Shown one piece after another: positions 14,881-23,847 of a stretch of 64,000 nt of DNA (positions are counted from its first letter, which is position 1; the number at the start of each line of letters is the position of its first letter). The position numbers were made by a program, and so were the translations under genes. This DNA comes from Trypanosoma brucei (lineage: Eukaryota), in assembly GCA_000002445.1 (NCBI GenBank), contig CH464491.1, positions 1,504,001-1,568,000 on the forward strand, given 5' to 3'. The notes below the pieces were generated by a model that worked only from the letters and a program-made list of their open reading frames with translations, was not told the DNA's origin and made no database searches.

Positions 14881-14926
14881 ACGGTTGTATTCACTGCTGG
14901 TTGGACTTGTTGGAAGGAGCTCCGAT

Positions 14927-17900
14927 ATGCCAGTTTTTCGTAATTCCACTGGTTTTGTCACTCCCTTTCGAATTCCGAGTGCGGTAAGCAGAGAAGACTC
15001 ATCGTCAACCACAACAACACCTCGCTCTTCTACTGTGTTGCAACGACAAAAGCGGGAGGTGGTGTACCCAGATTCCAGAGGCAGTTCAGGCAATGAAGTA
15101 GTTGCAGCGCGTCTAGCTAAACGCGCAAACATTGATTACCATCAACCAATAAAAGAGAACAAAACCTTTCCCAACCATGGAGGGCCCAATACTGAAGTTC
15201 ACGATGATAACGCCAGTGAGAAGACGACAGAAGAAGGCCCAGTTTCGTCGAAGCCGTCTGTTCCTCCGACAAGTGGTGTGCAACAGCAACAACCACAGGA
15301 AACGGCACCTGTTTCTACGGATGCTGCGGGAGCGGATGAAGGAAGTGTTGAGAAAAGTACCGAAATTGTTTCTCTGTATCCGGTAAGTCCCCATGGCTGT
15401 CTTTATTTTCAAGTGGAAACAGAGGCGGCCACCCGTCACGACTCAGTCGGTATTATTGTCATCAACACGGAACTTCTGGGTGTCATGATGTACGACTGTG
15501 CAGGAAGACAATATGGCAACAGACCAGAACCCGGCTACCCTATATCGGAAGAAGATATGAAGAGCGCTAAAGCCGGTGCCAAACTTAAGGTGGGGCAAAA
15601 AAGTGTACTTCTCGTTACTGCGCTATTGGAGGAATCATTCCGAAGCGGTGAGTTCTTCCTTCGGTCTGAGCACCTTTCTCGTAAGAGGGAAGAGGACAAA
15701 AAGGCGAAGGAAGAAGCAGCTGCAGCAGCTGCTCCTCGGCGAGTAGTGCCAAAAATGACATTGGGTGAAACTTTACTAGGGAATATGTTTGCCTCACCCA
15801 TTTTCCGTAAGCGACCGCGTGAGGGTCAAACTGGGTTCGTTGTTCCAATTGCTGGACGTGTGAAACCTGGAACCAGCGGAATTGGTGCTGAGTTGAAGTC
15901 TTTGCACGATCCTGACCGAGAAGGAGCAGTGGTACTTTTTCATGCTCACTACAAACGGGACGTTAATGGCCGTCTGCAAGTTTCGGTTGTTGTGGATCCG
16001 ATTATTGGTGACAAACTTCGACCGCATCAGCGAATCGGGGTGAAGTTTCTTTTCGATTGCATTACGGGTCAGCGGATGCCCGGCTACCACGGTGCCATCT
16101 TAGCAGATGAAATGGGTCTTGGAAAAACCATTCAAACAGTTGCTACCGTTTATACTTGTCTCAAACAAGGGAGGTATGGGGTACCCACAGCACGAAAGTG
16201 TTTGATCGTTACCCCATCTTCCCTAGTGAAGAATTGGTGCAACGAGTTTGACAAATGGTTGGGTGTGGGGGCTGTTAAATATCTCTCTATATCGGAGTCC
16301 ACACCAAAAGGCGATCGCATCATTTCTCGCTTCGATGGCGACGGTGATGTTCTCGTCATTTCGTACGATCAGCTACGCAAATACATCAGTCGCATTTCGA
16401 CGCTGAAGTCGGTTGAGTTAGTTGTCTGCGATGAGGGACACAAACTGAAAAATGCAGAGGTGAAAACAACGAAAGCAGTTGATATGCTCCCTACGCGGAA
16501 CCGCATCATCCTTAGCGGTACACCCATTCAAAACGACTTATCAGAATTTCATGCCATGGTGGGGTTTGTTAACCCCGGTATCTTAGGCACTCGTGATGTC
16601 TTCGGTCGCGTATTTGAGGAACCCGTGACGCTTGGACGGGACCCCGACTGTCCTGAGCATCTCCGGATGTTGGGAGCCGACCGCGCACATTACCTTTCCA
16701 CTTTAACCCAGCGCTTCATTCTTCGGCGCACGCAATCCATTAATGAGTCGTACCTCCCACCGAAGGTTGATCTTACAGTGTTCGTACGACTGGGTGAAAA
16801 GCAGCGCGAGGCGTATGAGAAGATTTCTGCTATCGTGGAGAGCTCGCAGTGTACCCCGCTTGTTCTGATCTCGTCATTGAGGAAACTTTGTAATCACATG
16901 GATCTCTTCCACGAGGCGGTGGTTAGCTCCAATGGGGATCAGAAGGGTAAGGGTGGTGGAATTCCCAAATCGGTGCTTCCGAAAGGCTACAAGGTTGGGA
17001 CTCTTTCCCAAGAGGTGGGCAGCAAGATGCAGTTTGTTTCCCTCATGCTAGACGAGTTATGCAGTAATGGGGATCACGACAAACTAGTGATCGTTTCGAA
17101 CTTCACTCAAACACTGGACGTCATTGCTGCCATGTGTAAAACCAAAAAGATTAGTTTCTTTCAGCTCGACGGTAGTATGCCCATCAAAAGGCGGCAGGAG
17201 GTGGTTGATCGGTTCAATGTCCCCAATTCTCAAGAGATTGTTTTCTTGCTTTCTTCCAAGGCTGGTGGAGTAGGCCTCAATCTTATTGGAGCGAATCGGC
17301 TAATTCTATTTGATCCTGACTGGAACCCTGCTAACGATGCACAAGCTATGGGTAGAGTGTGGCGTGATGGACAGAAGAAGCGTGTCTTCATATATCGTCT
17401 TTTAAGTACCGGTTCAATTGAGGAGAAGATTTACCAGCGACAGGTCAGTAAGCAAGGCCTCTCTGCAAACGTTGTTGATATGCAAACAGACTCAAAGCAA
17501 CACTTTACACTGGAAGAACTTCGGTCACTTTTTCGTTTTCGGAGTGACACCGACTCAGAAACACACGATCTTCTGCATTGCACGAGTTGTGAAGCGGTTA
17601 TGAATTCAGGGGGTGGCAGGGCCTCTGGAAGAGCAAGATTAAAAGAGCAGGAAGCACCAATGAAGTTCCGCCCTGTAACTGTGAAAAAGAGCGGACCCCG
17701 TATGGACGAACTAAAAGGGTGGAGGCATTTCTCTCAGTGTGCAACTTTCCCCTTGGACAAAGTTATACGTGCCATAGCCACGGCAGCACCGGGCATCTGC
17801 AGTTTCATCTTTGCTGATGAGCGTGACAACACCGCGACGACCGCATCGAAAGATGGCAAGGGAGGTAAGAGTGGTGGTGCCAAGGTTGAACCCGTGATGA

Positions 17901-18040
17901 AAGTGGAGCGGGCTTTTGCTGAAGACGAGGAAGCAATTATATGCATGAGCCAAACAGAGGAGATGGTAAGAGAGTCTCAACTTGAGATTGAGATCCATGA
18001 GGATGATGATGATGATGATTATCCCTCTGGTGACGATTAG
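14927..18040 (+). CDS. RAD54: SNF2-family DNA-dependent ATPase of the RAD54 type.
   Basis: It has LRPHQRIGVKFLFDC, ADEMGLGKTIQ (Walker A), DEGHKLKN (DExH), LSGTPIQNDLSEF, and helicase-C motifs LLSSKAGGVGLNLIGANRLILFDPDWNPANDAQAMGRVWRDGQKK. The first ATG is at 14927 (14885 is a TTG). It ends in an acidic DDDDDD tail. Confidence 0.9.
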   Translation: MPVFRNSTGFVTPFRIPSAVSREDSSSTTTTPRSSTVLQRQKREVVYPDSRGSSGNEVVAARLAKRANIDYHQPIKENKTFPNHGGPNTEVHDDNASEKTTEEGPVSSKPSVPPTSGVQQQQPQETAPVSTDAAGADEGSVEKSTEIVSLYPVSPHGCLYFQVETEAATRHDSVGIIVINTELLGVMMYDCAGRQYGNRPEPGYPISEEDMKSAKAGAKLKVGQKSVLLVTALLEESFRSGEFFLRSEHLSRKREEDKKAKEEAAAAAAPRRVVPKMTLGETLLGNMFASPIFRKRPREGQTGFVVPIAGRVKPGTSGIGAELKSLHDPDREGAVVLFHAHYKRDVNGRLQVSVVVDPIIGDKLRPHQRIGVKFLFDCITGQRMPGYHGAILADEMGLGKTIQTVATVYTCLKQGRYGVPTARKCLIVTPSSLVKNWCNEFDKWLGVGAVKYLSISESTPKGDRIISRFDGDGDVLVISYDQLRKYISRISTLKSVELVVCDEGHKLKNAEVKTTKAVDMLPTRNRIILSGTPIQNDLSEFHAMVGFVNPGILGTRDVFGRVFEEPVTLGRDPDCPEHLRMLGADRAHYLSTLTQRFILRRTQSINESYLPPKVDLTVFVRLGEKQREAYEKISAIVESSQCTPLVLISSLRKLCNHMDLFHEAVVSSNGDQKGKGGGIPKSVLPKGYKVGTLSQEVGSKMQFVSLMLDELCSNGDHDKLVIVSNFTQTLDVIAAMCKTKKISFFQLDGSMPIKRRQEVVDRFNVPNSQEIVFLLSSKAGGVGLNLIGANRLILFDPDWNPANDAQAMGRVWRDGQKKRVFIYRLLSTGSIEEKIYQRQVSKQGLSANVVDMQTDSKQHFTLEELRSLFRFRSDTDSETHDLLHCTSCEAVMNSGGGRASGRARLKEQEAPMKFRPVTVKKSGPRMDELKGWRHFSQCATFPLDKVIRAIATAAPGICSFIFADERDNTATTASKDGKGGKSGGAKVEPVMKVERAFAEDEEAIICMSQTEEMVRESQLEIEIHEDDDDDDYPSGDD
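18003..18020 (+). repeat. (GAT)6 trinucleotide repeat inside a CDS, encoding the poly-Asp tail of the RAD54-like protein.
   Basis: gatgatgatgatgatgat, translated as DDDDDD. Confidence 0.9.
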
Positions 18041-18666: not shown

Positions 18667-20361
18667 ATGACGCATCAATCAACTGATGTGTCCGGGCCGT
18701 GTGGCGCTGCCGTTCTAACAAATCGTTATCTCAACAGAGGAACCGCCTTTACCATTGAAGAGCGCAAACAGTTGCATATTCTCGGGCAGCTTCCTACAGT
18801 TGTTGAAACCCTGGAGCAGCAGGTGAAGCGTGCGTACAATCAGATGAAGAGCTGTGGCAAGCCCATCGATCAGTACCAACAGCTTGCTGCACTTCACGCT
18901 ACAAATACAACCCTTTATTACGCGACCATCTTTGCGCACCTTGAGGAAACACTTCCCATTATTTACACACCTACAGTGGGAGAGGCTTGCCAACGGTACA
19001 GCAGCCTTTTGTTTCGTGAGCGCGGGCTGTACTTATGCCGCACGTACAAGGGTATGTTCCGTACCATCATGCGCGATTCAGGGTACGAGAATCCGAAAGT
19101 TGTTGTAATAACTGATGGTTCTCGCATCTTGGGTCTTGGTGACCTCGGAGCAAACGGTGTGGGCATCAGCATTGGCAAATGTTCACTATATGTTGCCGGC
19201 GCCGGAATCAATCCAAAGAATGTTGTCCCCGTTGTACTTGACGCAGGGACAGATAATGCGGCTATGTTGAGTGACGATAATTATATCGGTGTGCGCCAAA
19301 AACGCCCCTCTGACGAGGATTTCTACGCTTTGTTGGATGAGTTCATGGAGGCTGCGAGTGAAGCATGGCCGGAAGCCGTTATACAATTTGAGGACTTCAG
19401 CAACAACCATTGTTTTGACATGCTTGAGCGGTACCAAAACAAGTATCGATGCTTCAATGATGATATTCAGGGAACTGGTGCTGTAATTGCTGCAGGCTTC
19501 CTAAATGCTGTGAAGCTTTCAAAGGTGGATCCCCTTGACCATCGTATTGTTGTGTTTGGCGCTGGTTCCGCTGCTATTGGTGTGGTGGACAATATTGCGG
19601 AGCTCACTGCACAACTGTACAACCTCAAGTCCGATGATGTGAAGAAGACATTTTATCTCGTTGACACAAAGGGTCTCGTTACCACTACGCGTGGCGACAA
19701 GTTGGCCTCCCATAAAGTGTCACTGGCTCGTACCGATGTCTCTGCAGAAGATTCAGCGAAATTGAAGACGTTGGAAGACGTTGTAAATTTTGTGAAACCG
19801 ACAACGCTCCTCGGACTTGGCGGCGTGGGCCCGGTATTCACGGAGAGCATGGTGAAGGGTATTCTAAACAACACGAAACGGCCAATTATATTTCCACTTT
19901 CCAACCCCACCAGCAAATCTGAGATCACCGCAGACAACGCCTTCAAGTGGACCGATGGTAAGGCAATTGTTGCCTCAGGAAGTCCCTTCCCGCCCACAAC
20001 TCTGAACGGCAAGACATACAAGGCATCCCAAGGTAACAATTTGTATGTTTTCCCCGGTATTGGACTTGGTTGTGCCATCGCGAAACCGGCGTATATTCCC
20101 AATGATTTACTTATTGCCGCTTCTCGCTGCCTTAACGGCCTTGTTTCAAAGGTGGGGCTTGAAGATGGATCTCTGTACCCTCCTCTGAGTGATATCCACA
20201 ACATTTCTGCCAACATTGCTACCGATGTCATTATGGAAGCACAGCGCTTGAAGATTGACAACAACTCTTCGTTGCCCCGCACACGAGCGGAGTTGATGGA
20301 TTATGTGAAGCATGCCATGTGGAAGCCGGAGTATCCAACAGGCATTCTCCCTGACGAGTAA
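18667..20361 (+). CDS. Malic enzyme (NADP-dependent malate dehydrogenase, decarboxylating) without an N-terminal presequence; cytosolic type.
   Basis: Full-length malic-enzyme homology with IYTPTVG, ITDGSRILGLGDLG, FEDF and FNDDIQGTGAV. The dinucleotide-binding motif is GAGSAAIG. ATG at 18667. Confidence 0.95.
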   Translation: MTHQSTDVSGPCGAAVLTNRYLNRGTAFTIEERKQLHILGQLPTVVETLEQQVKRAYNQMKSCGKPIDQYQQLAALHATNTTLYYATIFAHLEETLPIIYTPTVGEACQRYSSLLFRERGLYLCRTYKGMFRTIMRDSGYENPKVVVITDGSRILGLGDLGANGVGISIGKCSLYVAGAGINPKNVVPVVLDAGTDNAAMLSDDNYIGVRQKRPSDEDFYALLDEFMEAASEAWPEAVIQFEDFSNNHCFDMLERYQNKYRCFNDDIQGTGAVIAAGFLNAVKLSKVDPLDHRIVVFGAGSAAIGVVDNIAELTAQLYNLKSDDVKKTFYLVDTKGLVTTTRGDKLASHKVSLARTDVSAEDSAKLKTLEDVVNFVKPTTLLGLGGVGPVFTESMVKGILNNTKRPIIFPLSNPTSKSEITADNAFKWTDGKAIVASGSPFPPTTLNGKTYKASQGNNLYVFPGIGLGCAIAKPAYIPNDLLIAASRCLNGLVSKVGLEDGSLYPPLSDIHNISANIATDVIMEAQRLKIDNNSSLPRTRAELMDYVKHAMWKPEYPTGILPDE

Positions 20362-20503
20362 TGTAAGGGACGTGAAGGGAGCGATTGACACTCCGTGCTT
20401 ACACCAATATCGGTGAGCGAAGCATCCCTTTTACGAAGAAATTTCAGGTGAACACCCTTTTATATACTAAAAACGTGTGTCTTGTATATCTTCTACAGAC
20501 AAA

Positions 20504-20505
<2 letters not shown>

Positions 20506-20537
<32 letters not shown>
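20506..20537. repeat. (AT)n microsatellite of about 16 units in the 3' flank of the first malic enzyme.
   Basis: atatatatatatatatatatatatatatatat seen directly. Confidence 0.95.
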
Positions 20538-20540
<3 letters not shown>

Positions 20541-22131
20541 CGTTTCATGTTTTGTTTATTCATTTCGTCTTCATTTTACGTTCGCAGCAGCATTTTTTTT
20601 GTTTATGTTCTCTATTTTTTCTTTTATATTTTATTCGTCGCCTCGTTTCTGAGGTCTTTCGCCACTTTTACCCTTTGTTGGGGGCTGTTTGCAGTATGGT
20701 GAAAGTCTTTTACTGCTAGGATAATGAAATTGTGTATCGCATAACTGCGTGTAGAAAACGAACGGAATAAATTGGACATGAGCCAGTTACCGAGGTTTAT
20801 GAAAGAATTAACCACAGTTGTGGAGTGCCGTATACAAATGATGAAACGTATCGAAACGTGAAGAGAGAAGAAGTAGGCACGAGAGGGGATAAATTTTTTT
20901 TTTGTGATATGAAGGAGACGTTCGTAAGTTTTTCTCTTTTTTAGCCTATGAGCGTGTGTGCCGCAGCACAGGCTCTAGAGTTTCGTGAAGTATGAGGGTT
21001 CGAATGAGTTCCCGTACTTTTTCATATTTGAGAAACATTTTTTTTTTCATATGTGTCTGGTGGTTCATATTTGTTAGCCACTTTTTCCCCCTTCCTATGT
21101 TTATGGTGAACGCGTAAATAACAATTACTGTTGTAATCGCTCATCACACCGTGGCGGGTTGCGGTAGCCAAACTTCTCACGAAGAGGGTGGAGCTGCGGG
21201 GAGCGGAGGATTAATTGATAACGTCATGATAGTAAACAGGAGACACTTTTTTCATCAGTGTAAAATTCACGGTTCCGCAACAATACACGCCGAAGAGCCT
21301 CTACTTTTTTTACTGCAGTAATTAATTGCTGAGGAAAAGCAAATGCTTTTATATTGCAGGGAAAGGGGGGGATGCAAGGGGGAAAATATTGATATTGCAA
21401 TCTTTTTCTTTTTAGGGGGGGGGGAGATGCGGTGTAAGAGCGTAGAGGGACAGAGGTACATCAATGAAACACCAACTTTCAATGCGCTGTGGTTGCTTCT
21501 GTTGTGTCGGATTATGTTCGTCTGTTAATTGAGTTGGATGTGGTGCCTGTGTGTGTCGGGTTTTGAATTACAACTTCCAGATGCTCCTGTGCTTCATTGT
21601 CGATATATGTTTTCATTTATTTCTATCTTTATTTTTGTTTTGTATGTTTTGCCGTGTGTGCGTTGTGATTCTGTGATGAACTCATAGTTTTTGAAGAGAT
21701 AGGGTGGGCTCAGTGGGAAAATATTATATTCAAAATAAACTAGGAGGAAGAAATAACTTAAGGAGAAAGCACAATCAACGAGGAGGAAGACGTTCAGAAA
21801 CGCAAAAGACACACGAGCAGATCCAATATCATCATATCGCTTATCACTACGAGAATAAACTGTCACTTTTATTTGTTCCCCCCTATTAACGTTGAGCGAA
21901 AGGAGAAAAGTAAACAAATTGAAAGGGAGTAAGTTGTCATTTGGATGACGAAACTACACTTGTTTTTGGCATCCCTCTTCAAATTTTTTTCCACTTTCGT
22001 TTTATGATTTAAAGAATTGTTATAAAAAACAAGATAAGGACGTGTTGACGAGTACAAACAAAAAAGGAGGAAACTAAGGTTACTTAAGCAAGTCATACTC
22101 TGCTTTGAAGAAAAATCAGGTAACAGGTGCG

Positions 22132-23847
22132 ATGTTGGGTCGTTCGTTTAAACTTTGTGTTTCCACAAACGCCCGTGGGATCGATTTTCTCCGCAACCGT
22201 TTCACCAATAAGTCAACCGCGTTCACACGGAAGGAACGAGAACACCTCGGTGTTGTTGGGCTACTTCCACCCGCGGAGGAGACACTTGACGACCATGTCA
22301 AGCGCTGCTGGACACAATTGACCCATTTGGAGTACCCAATCAACAAATACCAACTCTTACAGGGAATTCTCAGCACTAATACTGTTCTTTATTACAAGAT
22401 TGTGGAAACCTACATGAAGGAAACACTTCCAATTATTTACACACCTACAGTGGGAGAGGCTTGTCAAAAATACGGAAACATCTTTCAAAGAGACCATGGA
22501 CTCTACATAAGCATGAAGGAACGTGGGGTGATCCGGCAGACCCTTGAAAACCTTCGGAAACCTGAGGTTGAAGTTATTGTAATAACTGATGGTTCTCGCA
22601 TCTTGGGTCTTGGTGACCTCGGAGCAAACGGTATGGGCATCAGCATTGGCAAATGTTCACTATACGTTGCCGCCGGTGGAATTAACCCGAGCCGCATCCT
22701 ACCAGTTATGATGGACGTGGGGACAGATAATGAAGGACTTCGTGCGGATCCTCAATATCTTGGTTTGCGCCAAAAACGCCCCTCTGACGAGGATTTCTAC
22801 GCTTTGTTGGATGAGTTCATGGAGGCTGCGAGTGAAGCATGGCCGGAAGCCGTTATACAATTTGAGGACTTCAGCAACAACCATTGTTTTGATATGCTTG
22901 AGCGGTACCAAAACAAGTATCGATGCTTCAATGATGATATTCAGGGAACTGGTGCTGTAATTGCTGCAGGCTTCCTAAATGCGATCGAGGCAAGCGGCAT
23001 TCCTGCAGAGGATCATCGAATAGTGTTTTTTGGCGCTGGTTCCGCTGCGACAGGTGTGGCCACCTGCATTGTTGACTTGGTTGCCGCAAAGTACAAAAAG
23101 ACGTTCGCAGAAGTGCAGAATAACGTATATCTTCTTGATACCAAGGGTGTCATAACAACCACGCGTGGCGACAAGTTGGCACCACACAAGGTCCCGTGGG
23201 CCCGCACTGATATTTCAGCCGAGCAGAGCAAGTCGCTTTCCACATTGGTGGATGCTGTGAAGTTTGTAAAACCAACAGCGCTGATCGGCCTTGGAGCCCA
23301 AGGTGGTGTTTTCACTGAGGATATTCTAAAGTTTATGCGATCATACTGCGAGAAGCCTGTGATTTTTGCACTTTCCAACCCCTCAAGCAAAGTGGAGGTT
23401 ACTCCAGACAACGCCTTCAAGTGGACCGATGGTAAGGCAATTGTCGCAACTGGCAGTCCCTTCCCGCCCACAACTCTGAACGGCAAGAAATATGAGGCAT
23501 CCCAAGGTAACAATTTGTATGTTTTCCCCGGTATTGGACTTGGTTGTGCCATCGCGCAGCCGAAAAATATCCCACAGGAGGTACTCCAAACAGCGGCCGT
23601 CACCCTCAGTAAGTTAGTGGATCGTAATGTCATGGCTTCTGAGGGAGCACTGTATCCATGTATTGATGAAGTGCGTGAAGTGTCGAAACAGGTGGCAGCT
23701 GCTGTGATTGAAAAGTTGCAAGAGATGGGTTTGGCAAAGGAGGGGTTGCCCACAAGCAAAGGGGAACGATTGAAATTGGTGGAGGAACGGATGTGGACAC
23801 CCAAATATCTTGAACCGGAATATTACCTGTCGAAGAAGCTGGAGTAA
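22132..23847 (+). CDS. Malic enzyme paralogue with a mitochondrial-type N-terminal presequence.
   Basis: The first ATG is at 22132 (MLGRSFKLCVSTNARG, basic and hydroxylated with no acidic residues). The rest aligns with the upstream malic enzyme. 22105 is a TTG. Confidence 0.95.
   Translation: MLGRSFKLCVSTNARGIDFLRNRFTNKSTAFTRKEREHLGVVGLLPPAEETLDDHVKRCWTQLTHLEYPINKYQLLQGILSTNTVLYYKIVETYMKETLPIIYTPTVGEACQKYGNIFQRDHGLYISMKERGVIRQTLENLRKPEVEVIVITDGSRILGLGDLGANGMGISIGKCSLYVAAGGINPSRILPVMMDVGTDNEGLRADPQYLGLRQKRPSDEDFYALLDEFMEAASEAWPEAVIQFEDFSNNHCFDMLERYQNKYRCFNDDIQGTGAVIAAGFLNAIEASGIPAEDHRIVFFGAGSAATGVATCIVDLVAAKYKKTFAEVQNNVYLLDTKGVITTTRGDKLAPHKVPWARTDISAEQSKSLSTLVDAVKFVKPTALIGLGAQGGVFTEDILKFMRSYCEKPVIFALSNPSSKVEVTPDNAFKWTDGKAIVATGSPFPPTTLNGKKYEASQGNNLYVFPGIGLGCAIAQPKNIPQEVLQTAAVTLSKLVDRNVMASEGALYPCIDEVREVSKQVAAAVIEKLQEMGLAKEGLPTSKGERLKLVEERMWTPKYLEPEYYLSKKLE

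Follow-up and report, generated by a model that had tools for sequence, protein, structure and literature searches.

Islands of near-identity in tandem malic-enzyme genes of Trypanosoma brucei point to repeated gene conversion between old paralogues

Gene conversion is a well-known process in the tandem genes of trypanosomes, and the closest precedent for the malic-enzyme pair described here is the PGK A/B/C array of T. brucei and T. congolense, for which Parker et al. 1995 is cited. In both systems, tandem genes encode isoenzymes for different compartments, and partial gene conversion appears to have made the coding sequences chimaeric while the targeting determinants stayed distinct. The compartments differ (cytosol and mitochondrion for malic enzyme, cytosol and glycosome for PGK), as does the number of genes (two against three). 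The malic-enzyme genes are also far more diverged (58% identical in amino acids and 66.6% in nucleotides overall), with patches visible as islands, and, unlike in PGK, one and the same central tract shows homogenisation in all kinetoplastid lineages examined.

Tandem arrays of T. brucei undergo partial (‘allelic’) gene conversion that leaves subspecies-specific mosaics (Jackson 2007; Jackson et al. 2010), and chimaeric copies occur in 21 of 47 arrays (Jackson 2007). These surveys address the same organism and process with the same criteria (cladistic and distribution- or GENECONV-type), but cover arrays of more than three copies only, which are dosage arrays, whereas the malic-enzyme cluster has two genes, paralogues that separated long ago and have diverged in function. 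Malic enzyme is not mentioned in the main text of Jackson 2007 or of the T. b. gambiense genome paper, and our literature search brought up no account of conversion between these genes, on which Allmann et al. 2013 (J Biol Chem) or Leroux et al. 2011 may carry a remark. The pair is apparently a new example, and would be an unusually clean case of regional concerted evolution, as its divergence makes each tract an island.

Regional concerted evolution between old paralogues is known from primate globin and opsin genes and from yeast ribosomal-protein paralogues. As in the malic-enzyme pair, interlocus conversion affects parts of the coding sequence, the borders are diverged and trees switch along the gene from orthology to clustering by species; the malic-enzyme pair differs in time depth, its duplication predating the Bodo/trypanosomatid split, and in repair background, with polycistronic transcription and no introns. 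From evidence that is comparative throughout (an old duplication, homogenised synonymous sites, species-wise clustering of tracts and strain-specific, non-reciprocal patches), we conclude that these ancient tandem paralogues very probably overwrite short stretches of each other repeatedly by ectopic interlocus gene conversion. With tracts replicated across seven lineages and events still segregating among strains of the T. brucei group, the locus can serve to estimate how long ectopic conversion tracts are, which way they run and how fast they form in trypanosomes, beyond the VSG system.

Shared tracts in two diverged genes

The window, to which all coordinates refer, is a 64,000-nucleotide stretch of T. 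brucei TREU927 (contig CH464491.1). It holds malic-enzyme gene A (Tb927.11.5440, 18667..20361, 564 amino acids) followed in tandem by gene B (Tb927.11.5450, 22132..23847, 571 amino acids from the ATG), both on the plus strand and both found as open reading frames exactly where the original prediction had placed them. The product of gene A is 100% identical to the TREU927 protein ‘malic enzyme, putative’, carries PF00390 and PF03949 among its precomputed Pfam domains and has 6w29 as its top solved relative (926 bits over residues 13-557); PF00390 (malic) and PF03949 (Malic_M) are also present in the annotated DAL972 protein that matches gene B. Both genes thus encode malic enzymes by their two full-length Pfam domains and their similarity to solved enzymes. 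The longest frame of gene B opens at an upstream TTG (22105), and the annotated DAL972 protein uses the same ATG as 22132, from which gene B starts with a basic extension (MLGRSFKL...); its B-clade orthologues all begin with ML or MF, followed by any residue, R and a hydrophobic residue. Leroux and colleagues are also said to have located one isoform in the cytosol and the other in the mitochondrion. On the published assignment, A is the cytosolic and B the mitochondrial NADP-malic enzyme (PMC6522824).

All repeats between A and B sit at one constant offset of 3474 nt, and the core is free of indels. Direct repeats were found only within the two coding sequences: the intergenic region (20362..22131), comprising the 3' UTR of A and the 5' UTR of B, is unshared between the copies, and the 300-nt flanks of A and B are 28-30% identical, which is the random level. 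The intergenic region also contains an (AT)16 microsatellite (20506-20537).

Four tracts on the plus strand stand out in a direct-repeat search with mismatch counts, supplemented by codon comparison. Tract 1 (18944..18989 in A, 22418..22463 in B; encoding ETLPIIYTPTVGEAC) has 1 mismatch in 45 nt (18945-18989 versus 22419-22463), at 18957, followed by a perfect 32-nt fragment (18958-18989), and is by itself too short for significance; its partner had been predicted 6 nt away, at 22425-22469. Tract 2 (19103..19197 and 22577..22671; encoding VITDGSRILGLGDLGANG(V/M)GISIGKCSLYVA) has 2 mismatches in 95 nt. Tract 3 (19292..19508 and 22766..22982; 72 identical codons, RQKRPSDEDFY...FEDF...FNDDIQGTGAVIAAGFLNA) spans 217 nt with the one mismatch that had been foreseen (1 in 216 over 19293-19508 versus 22767-22982), a C/T difference at 19419 that reads TTTGACATGCT in A and TTTGATATGCT in B. 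These three blocks bear out the claim of identity or near-identity. Tract 4 (19931..20082 and 23405..23556; encoding DNAFKWTDGKAIVA...SQGNNLYVFPGIGLGCAIA) does not, with 9 mismatches in 153 nt (19931-20083 versus 23405-23557, 94% identical), and is a composite of perfect fragments of 40, 34 and 62 nt with two mismatch clusters between them. The 45-nt flanks of the blocks are just 38-73% identical between A and B.

Synonymous divergence is far from uniform along the pair, as predicted. Degenerate codons for identical amino acids are the same in 151 of 158 cases inside the blocks (96%) versus 72 of 162 outside (44%; Fisher p = 7e-26), and NG86 dS is 0.195, 0.044, 0.051 and 0.199 in blocks 1-4, compared with 1.63 in the remainder of the genes. 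In a run-length permutation on synonymous codons, used as a GENECONV-type criterion, none of 20,000 shuffles reached the four longest identical runs (41, 28, 28 and 21); the longest run in the shuffles averaged 13.7 and peaked at 34. The block pattern exceeds chance. GC3 is not raised in the T. brucei tracts (0.46 versus 0.51-0.54) and behaves inconsistently in other species; with no GC3 excess in the tracts, we rejected GC-biased gene conversion as a visible signature.

Because the genes have perfectly matching stretches of 127, 89, 62 and 56 nt in common, as well as an identical peptide of 72 residues, RNAi fragments, probes, short reads and tryptic peptides taken from these parts should be unable to separate the isoforms.

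Homogenisation across kinetoplastids and placement of tracts

The core of tract 3 clusters by species in 7 of 7 species, with bootstrap values of 83-100%. As between-species NG86 dS is saturated, we used the fraction of identical codons in its place, which for this core reaches 0.84-1.00 within species, against 0.25-0.65 at the gene ends and at most 0.73 in between-species pairs. Tract 2 likewise clusters by species in T. brucei (100%), T. vivax (99%), T. cruzi (88%) and Phytomonas (100%), and tract 4 does so in T. brucei, T. vivax and Phytomonas, whereas T. cruzi and T. melophagium do not show this grouping for it. As to the lineage specificity originally asked about, block 4 and other tracts are lineage-specific, but the central tract is homogenised in all kinetoplastids examined, and conversion is not confined to T. 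brucei. Runs of identical synonymous codons are significantly long in T. brucei, T. vivax, T. melophagium, T. cruzi and Phytomonas (P < 2e-4) and in Leptomonas (P = 2e-4), with P = 0.06 in Bodo. Leptomonas and Bodo give a weaker signal (core nucleotide identity 0.82-0.83), and in these two a codon bias particular to the species, acting on an invariant peptide, could contribute to the species-wise clustering. The donors of old tracts are left unassigned here, as block 4 and the T. vivax 344-405 tract differ by only a few residues in their similarity to A-type and B-type orthologues. Copy number varies at the locus, with three A copies in T. melophagium.

The copying is non-reciprocal and would proceed through homologous-recombination repair, for which the same chromatid, its sister or the homologue could supply the donor and which would be expected to depend on RAD51/BRCA2 and to be limited by mismatch repair. 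Tracts measure tens to about 220 nt and run in both directions. They fall in segments for the most conserved, catalytic parts of the enzyme, while the N-terminal third with its targeting sequence escapes and goes on evolving as orthologues do, along with a middle segment, the C-terminal fifth and the UTRs. The blocks take in all four of the most conserved 15-residue windows in the family and 8 of the 12 that rank highest, and conservation among 40 non-kinetoplastid enzymes is 0.78 in blocks versus 0.59 elsewhere (p = 4.5e-14). Purifying selection on the catalytic core may preserve enough nucleotide identity for heteroduplex to start and extend, each conversion would then renew that identity and make the hotspot self-maintaining, and divergent flanks would halt the tracts; selection may also remove conversions that overwrite isoform-specific parts. 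With present data, homology dependence and selection are inseparable as causes of the placement.

It is conceivable, and we put this forward tentatively at somewhat less than an even chance, that the segment of roughly 180 nt encoding the metal-binding core (FEDF...NDDIQGTGAV) is a self-perpetuating hotspot that has been under concerted evolution since before bodonids and trypanosomatids diverged, and that conversion also moved amino-acid changes between compartments (S/T at 19975 in DAL972 and K/E at 20020 in T. equiperdum). If so, the cytosolic and mitochondrial catalytic cores would have behaved as a single evolving sequence over hundreds of millions of years, with the remainder of each gene diverging.

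Exchange might instead be real but retained by positive selection for co-evolution of the catalytic cores, a form of adaptive concerted evolution and not a neutral by-product of repair. The homogenisation of the central tract in every lineage examined would fit, as would the species-specific residues of tract 3 that A and B have in common within each species (T. brucei, T. congolense, compared at the protein level only, T. vivax, T. cruzi, T. conorhini, T. rangeli, Phytomonas and Leishmania (Viannia)). Tract limits, however, vary freely among species and even strains, Phytomonas tolerates an almost completely homogenised core, and a neutral hotspot that reinforces itself predicts the same pattern, and we regard selection for co-evolution as unlikely.

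Strain-specific patches in the T. brucei group

We compared TREU927, T. b. gambiense DAL972 and T. equiperdum, each represented by a haploid consensus of a diploid, sexual organism, such that what looks specific to a strain may be a haplotype of greater age that is still segregating. The three differ in no fewer than four non-reciprocal patches, each specific to a strain, with transfers running both ways. At 19296-7 only the A gene of TREU927 has the B type. In tract 4, the mismatch cluster at 19971-19980 is erased in DAL972, where only DAL972-A has the B type, and that at 20015-20020 is erased in T. equiperdum, where only T. equiperdum-B has the A type. Elsewhere, 19314 (A/B) is C/C in TREU927 and T. 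equiperdum and T/T in DAL972, 19419 is C/T in TREU927, C/C in DAL972 and T/T in T. equiperdum, and the tract 1 mismatch at 18957 is absent in DAL972. Because these patches differ among the strains, conversion appears to have been recent, within the T. brucei group, in line with its original description as recent and repeated.

Three of the events (19296-7, 19971-19980 and 20015-20020) can be polarised by the three-strain comparison of haploid consensus sequences, with the donor unchanged and the recipient altered. This bears on whether reciprocal double crossovers or unequal sister-chromatid exchange, and not non-reciprocal conversion, made the patches. Unequal exchange does occur at the locus, given the changed copy number in T. 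melophagium, but for the DAL972 and T. equiperdum patches in tract 4 the donor is unchanged in all three strains, and a single unequal crossover would yield chimaeric genes and a change in copy number, not internal patches. A reciprocal origin is in our view very improbable.

Codon constraint, age of the pair and assembly

Purifying selection at the codon or nucleotide level, through an RNA element, codon preference or a regulatory site, might hold the blocks identical without any exchange, and the coincidence of the blocks with the most conserved protein segments speaks for this. Yet between-species synonymous sites are as saturated inside the blocks as outside (identical-codon fraction 0.38-0.46 versus 0.37-0.47), so that nucleotide-level constraint on the blocks across species is absent. 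Nor are the blocks equally identical in distant species: tract 3 is 99% identical between the T. brucei paralogues but just 72-83% identical to its orthologues, and its 5' half encodes a poorly conserved peptide in which species-specific residues recur in both paralogues. Other windows that are equally well conserved (PIIFPLSNPTS, FGAGSAA and VDTKGLVTTTRGDKL) serve as an internal control, as they keep synonymous differences in T. brucei; the VDTKGLVTTTRGDKL window is homogenised in T. vivax instead. An Rfam search matched no family and block 3 folds no better than its shuffles (z = +0.91), on which grounds we rejected an RNA element. Codon-level selection alone is thus scarcely credible, and gene conversion between the paralogues, as originally proposed, is supported by the contrast in dS, by the saturated between-species sites and by the failure of the rivals tested.

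Block identity alone could also speak for a recent duplication, with the blocks as untouched remnants and the diverged parts fast-evolving or replaced. Tandem A and B types are present in 8 species, and wherever upstream sequence was covered (T. cruzi, T. vivax, Phytomonas, Leptomonas, T. b. gambiense and T. equiperdum) a gene for the same SNF2-family helicase precedes the pair; in T. melophagium and Bodo saltans the tandem pair was seen in stretches that do not extend to the upstream sequence and include no helicase gene. N- and C-terminal segments cluster by paralogue (86-88% bootstrap for the Trypanosoma B clade), with 0% support for any within-species A+B pair in the gene-end trees, in agreement with the view that the targeting region and the C-terminus have been kept distinct. 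Because tandem A and B types with conserved synteny occur alongside ends that group by paralogue, the duplication is older than the species compared and, judged from these sequences, predates the split of trypanosomatids and Bodo. Every trypanosomatid examined has both types in tandem, as does Bodo saltans, dS outside the blocks is saturated (1.63), and the orthology of the diverged segments refutes recent duplication, to which we give virtually no weight. Whole-sequence malic-enzyme phylogenies will mix two histories.

An assembly or consensus artefact, in which reads of one paralogue were merged into the other, is conceivable in that consensus polishing with short reads can go astray at repeats of 100-200 nt and gene A is frameshifted in the long-read assembly of T. 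vivax. It has next to no chance of explaining a mosaic that recurs in eight species and ten independent assemblies, produced by different technologies, varies in extent from species to species, consists of patches with paralogue-specific sequence on either side at less than a read length and has its protein-level signature also in records of T. congolense, T. rangeli and T. conorhini.

Near-identical blocks in a diverged gene pair

The + strand carries two malic-enzyme ORFs in head-to-tail order, gene A (Tb927.11.5440; 18667–20361, 564 amino acids) and gene B (Tb927.11.5450; 22132–23847, 571 amino acids), both with PF00390 and PF03949 and with 6w29 as the nearest solved structure (926 bits). 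Gene A is 100% identical to its Trypanosoma brucei brucei TREU927 counterpart (P0001), which identifies the source of the window. A is described as the cytosolic and B as the mitochondrial isoform (PMC6522824); citations elsewhere on isoform location and function go to Leroux et al. (2011) and Allmann et al. (2013). The B sequence opens with a basic N-terminal extension (MLGRSFKL...), a pattern found in all B-type orthologues. Directly upstream of the pair is an ORF for a SNF2/RAD54-like helicase (14885–18040; ResIII, SNF2-rel_dom and Helicase_C in orthologues), and the A–B intergenic region holds a perfect (AT)16 microsatellite (20506–20537).

Similarity between A and B follows a single offset of 3474 nt throughout. 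A repeat search found none outside the coding regions, and the 300-nt gene flanks are 28–30% identical, as for random sequence. Aligned by codon, the two genes are 58% identical in amino acids and 66.6% in nucleotides overall. The original prediction of near-identical blocks in these diverged paralogues is borne out by mismatch counts, codon identity, shuffles and synonymous divergence (NG86 dS). Block 1 (A 18945–18989) has 1 mismatch in 45 nt, although its partner in B lies 6 nt from where it had been placed; block 2 (19103–19197) has 2 in 95; and block 3 (19293–19508) has, exactly as counted originally, one in 216, a C/T difference at 19419. Block 4 (19931–20083) does not deserve the description near-identical, being a composite of three perfect fragments with 9 mismatches in 153 nt. 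Identity falls to 38–73% in the 45-nt flanks of the blocks. Codons for the same amino acid are identical between A and B at 151 of 158 positions in the blocks compared to 72 of 162 outside (p=7e-26), and none of 20,000 shuffles reached the four longest unbroken stretches of identical synonymous codons (41, 28, 28 and 21). Both dS (0.04–0.20 versus 1.63 in the rest) and dN (0–0.04 versus 0.59) are low in the blocks.

As a 72-residue identical stretch (19292–19508 and 22766–22982) yields peptides common to both proteins, mis-assignment of isoforms is possible. A proteomics table tags Tb927.11.5440 as 'Mito' (PMC6686227), whereas PMC6522824 has the same gene as the cytosolic isoform.

Duplication age and nucleotide constraint

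A protein search recovered A and B types from all trypanosomatids examined, and from Bodo saltans, which is free-living. We compared locus DNA from T. cruzi (L001), T. vivax (L003, L009), T. melophagium (L004), Phytomonas EM1 (L005), Leptomonas pyrrhocoris (L006), T. b. gambiense DAL972 (L007), Bodo saltans (L008) and T. equiperdum (L010). The order A then B holds in 8/8 species, and a SNF2-family helicase gene precedes A wherever upstream DNA is covered (T. cruzi, T. vivax, Phytomonas, Leptomonas, T. b. gambiense and T. equiperdum; no such gene falls in the stretches from T. melophagium and Bodo). Neighbour-joining trees of the N-terminal (alignment columns 25–102) and C-terminal (485–575) parts group sequences by paralogue, with 86–88% bootstrap for the Trypanosoma B clade, and never recover a within-species A+B pair. 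The paralogue-wise trees and the shared gene order therefore rule out the blocks as leftovers of a recent duplication.

Copy number also changes at this locus, as T. melophagium carries three tandem A-type copies (L004 1005–2690, 3503–5188 and 6001–7686) before a single B; the first two match exactly and the third departs from them at 3 codons. One T. vivax assembly breaks gene A into two ORFs (L003 6561–8254), probably through an assembly frameshift error, and the other has it intact (L009).

Constraint on the nucleotide sequence itself would leave the blocks equally identical in distant species, the main comparison proposed with the original prediction, and between species they are diverged. 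Within T. brucei, A and B are 99% identical in block 3, against only 72–83% identity to any orthologue. Where amino acids agree between T. brucei and T. vivax, T. melophagium or T. cruzi, a fraction of 0.38–0.46 of the codons is identical in blocks and 0.37–0.47 outside, and NG86 dS is saturated in both. No Rfam family matched the region, and the RNA fold of block 3 did not surpass those of its shuffles (z=+0.91). Equally conserved peptide windows (PIIFPLSNPTS, FGAGSAA and VDTKGLVTTTRGDKL) provide an internal control in that they retain synonymous differences in T. brucei, and the peptide encoded by the 5' half of block 3 is poorly conserved, yet the same in A and B.

Recent transfers and concerted evolution

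That gene conversion has been recent, as first proposed, is upheld by strain differences in a site-by-site comparison of TREU927, DAL972 and T. equiperdum. At 19296–19297, TREU927 A is of B type and distinct in the other two; at 19971–19980 (5 nt), DAL972 A is of B type, while A differs from B in TREU927 and T. equiperdum; and at 20015–20020 (3 nt), T. equiperdum B is of A type, while B differs from A in TREU927 and DAL972. Both paralogues have C at 19314 in TREU927 and T. equiperdum and T in DAL972; at 19419, TREU927 has C in A and T in B, DAL972 C in both and T. equiperdum T in both. For the polarised events the donor copy is unchanged in 3/3 genomes, so that transfer was non-reciprocal, and it went in both directions. 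In two events the recipient protein was altered, with S replaced by T in DAL972 gene A and E by K in T. equiperdum gene B. Because each genome is a haploid consensus of a diploid organism, some events may be older segregating haplotypes.

In block 3 protein, A and B share species-specific residues within each of T. brucei, T. congolense, T. vivax, T. cruzi, T. conorhini, T. rangeli, Phytomonas and Leishmania (Viannia). In the DNA, a long identical-codon run covers the gene centre of each species, and its extent is species-specific. T. vivax has an extra tract (columns 344–405, VDTKG...TTTRGDKL; L009 6001–7695, L003 10001–11716) where T. brucei is diverged at synonymous sites, and in Phytomonas EM1 (L005 6001–9932) nearly the whole core is homogenised (columns ~160–480, with 136 and 116 consecutive identical synonymous codons) except a short island at columns ~320–343 and the two gene ends. 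Trees of the block 3 core unite same-species A and B in 7/7 species (83–100% bootstrap); for block 4 this pairing is confined to T. brucei, T. vivax, Phytomonas and Bodo, and block 4 homogenisation is absent in T. cruzi and T. melophagium. Identical-codon fractions within species are 0.84–1.00 in the core and 0.25–0.65 in the gene ends, and no between-species pair exceeds 0.73. Run-length tests are significant in all species but Bodo (P=0.06); the signal is weaker in Leptomonas and Bodo, where codon bias may contribute. Overall, the gene-conversion interpretation is supported and extended.

Known arrays and tract placement

Partial gene conversion is well documented in T. brucei tandem arrays, with chimaeric copies in 21/47 arrays (Jackson 2007) and subspecies-specific mosaics distinguishing TREU927 and DAL972 (T. 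b. gambiense genome paper). The PGK array of glycosomal and cytosolic isoenzymes holds a conversion chimaera, and for T. congolense PGK conversion Parker et al. (1995) are cited elsewhere. Whereas the array surveys were restricted to arrays of more than three copies, the malic-enzyme pair has two genes, and the main texts of Jackson (2007) and the T. b. gambiense genome paper do not mention malic enzyme. Literature searches turned up no account of conversion for this gene pair, though Allmann et al. (2013) or Leroux et al. (2011) may contain a remark; for the Leishmania major pair, a 2026 preprint says no more than that the genes are in tandem and about 65% identical. The pair is a new, very clean case of a mechanism unsurprising to trypanosome specialists. 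Since its central tract is deep and recurrent, with events still segregating in the T. brucei group, it is a useful natural reporter locus.

When 15-residue windows of the family are ranked by conservation, the blocks take in all of the first four and 8 of the first 12, and conservation is 0.78 in the blocks versus 0.59 outside (40 non-kinetoplastid malic enzymes; p=4.5e-14). Going by malic-enzyme structures in general, these windows would contain the catalytic Tyr (YTPTVG) and Lys (GKCSLY), the residues that bind metal (FEDF, NDDIQG) and the NN that binds substrate (SQGNNLY). The simplest account of tract placement would be that protein constraint preserves enough nucleotide identity in the blocks for recombination to start, that every conversion re-creates this identity in a self-maintaining hotspot, that diverged flanks halt heteroduplex extension, and that selection purges tracts overwriting isoform-specific parts. 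No GC3 excess was found in the tracts. Outside them, GC3 in A and B is 0.77 and 0.55 in T. cruzi (L001) and 0.71 and 0.41 in T. melophagium (L004), with no strong paralogue difference in T. brucei (0.54 versus 0.51); the paralogue gap may reflect different expression-linked codon selection.
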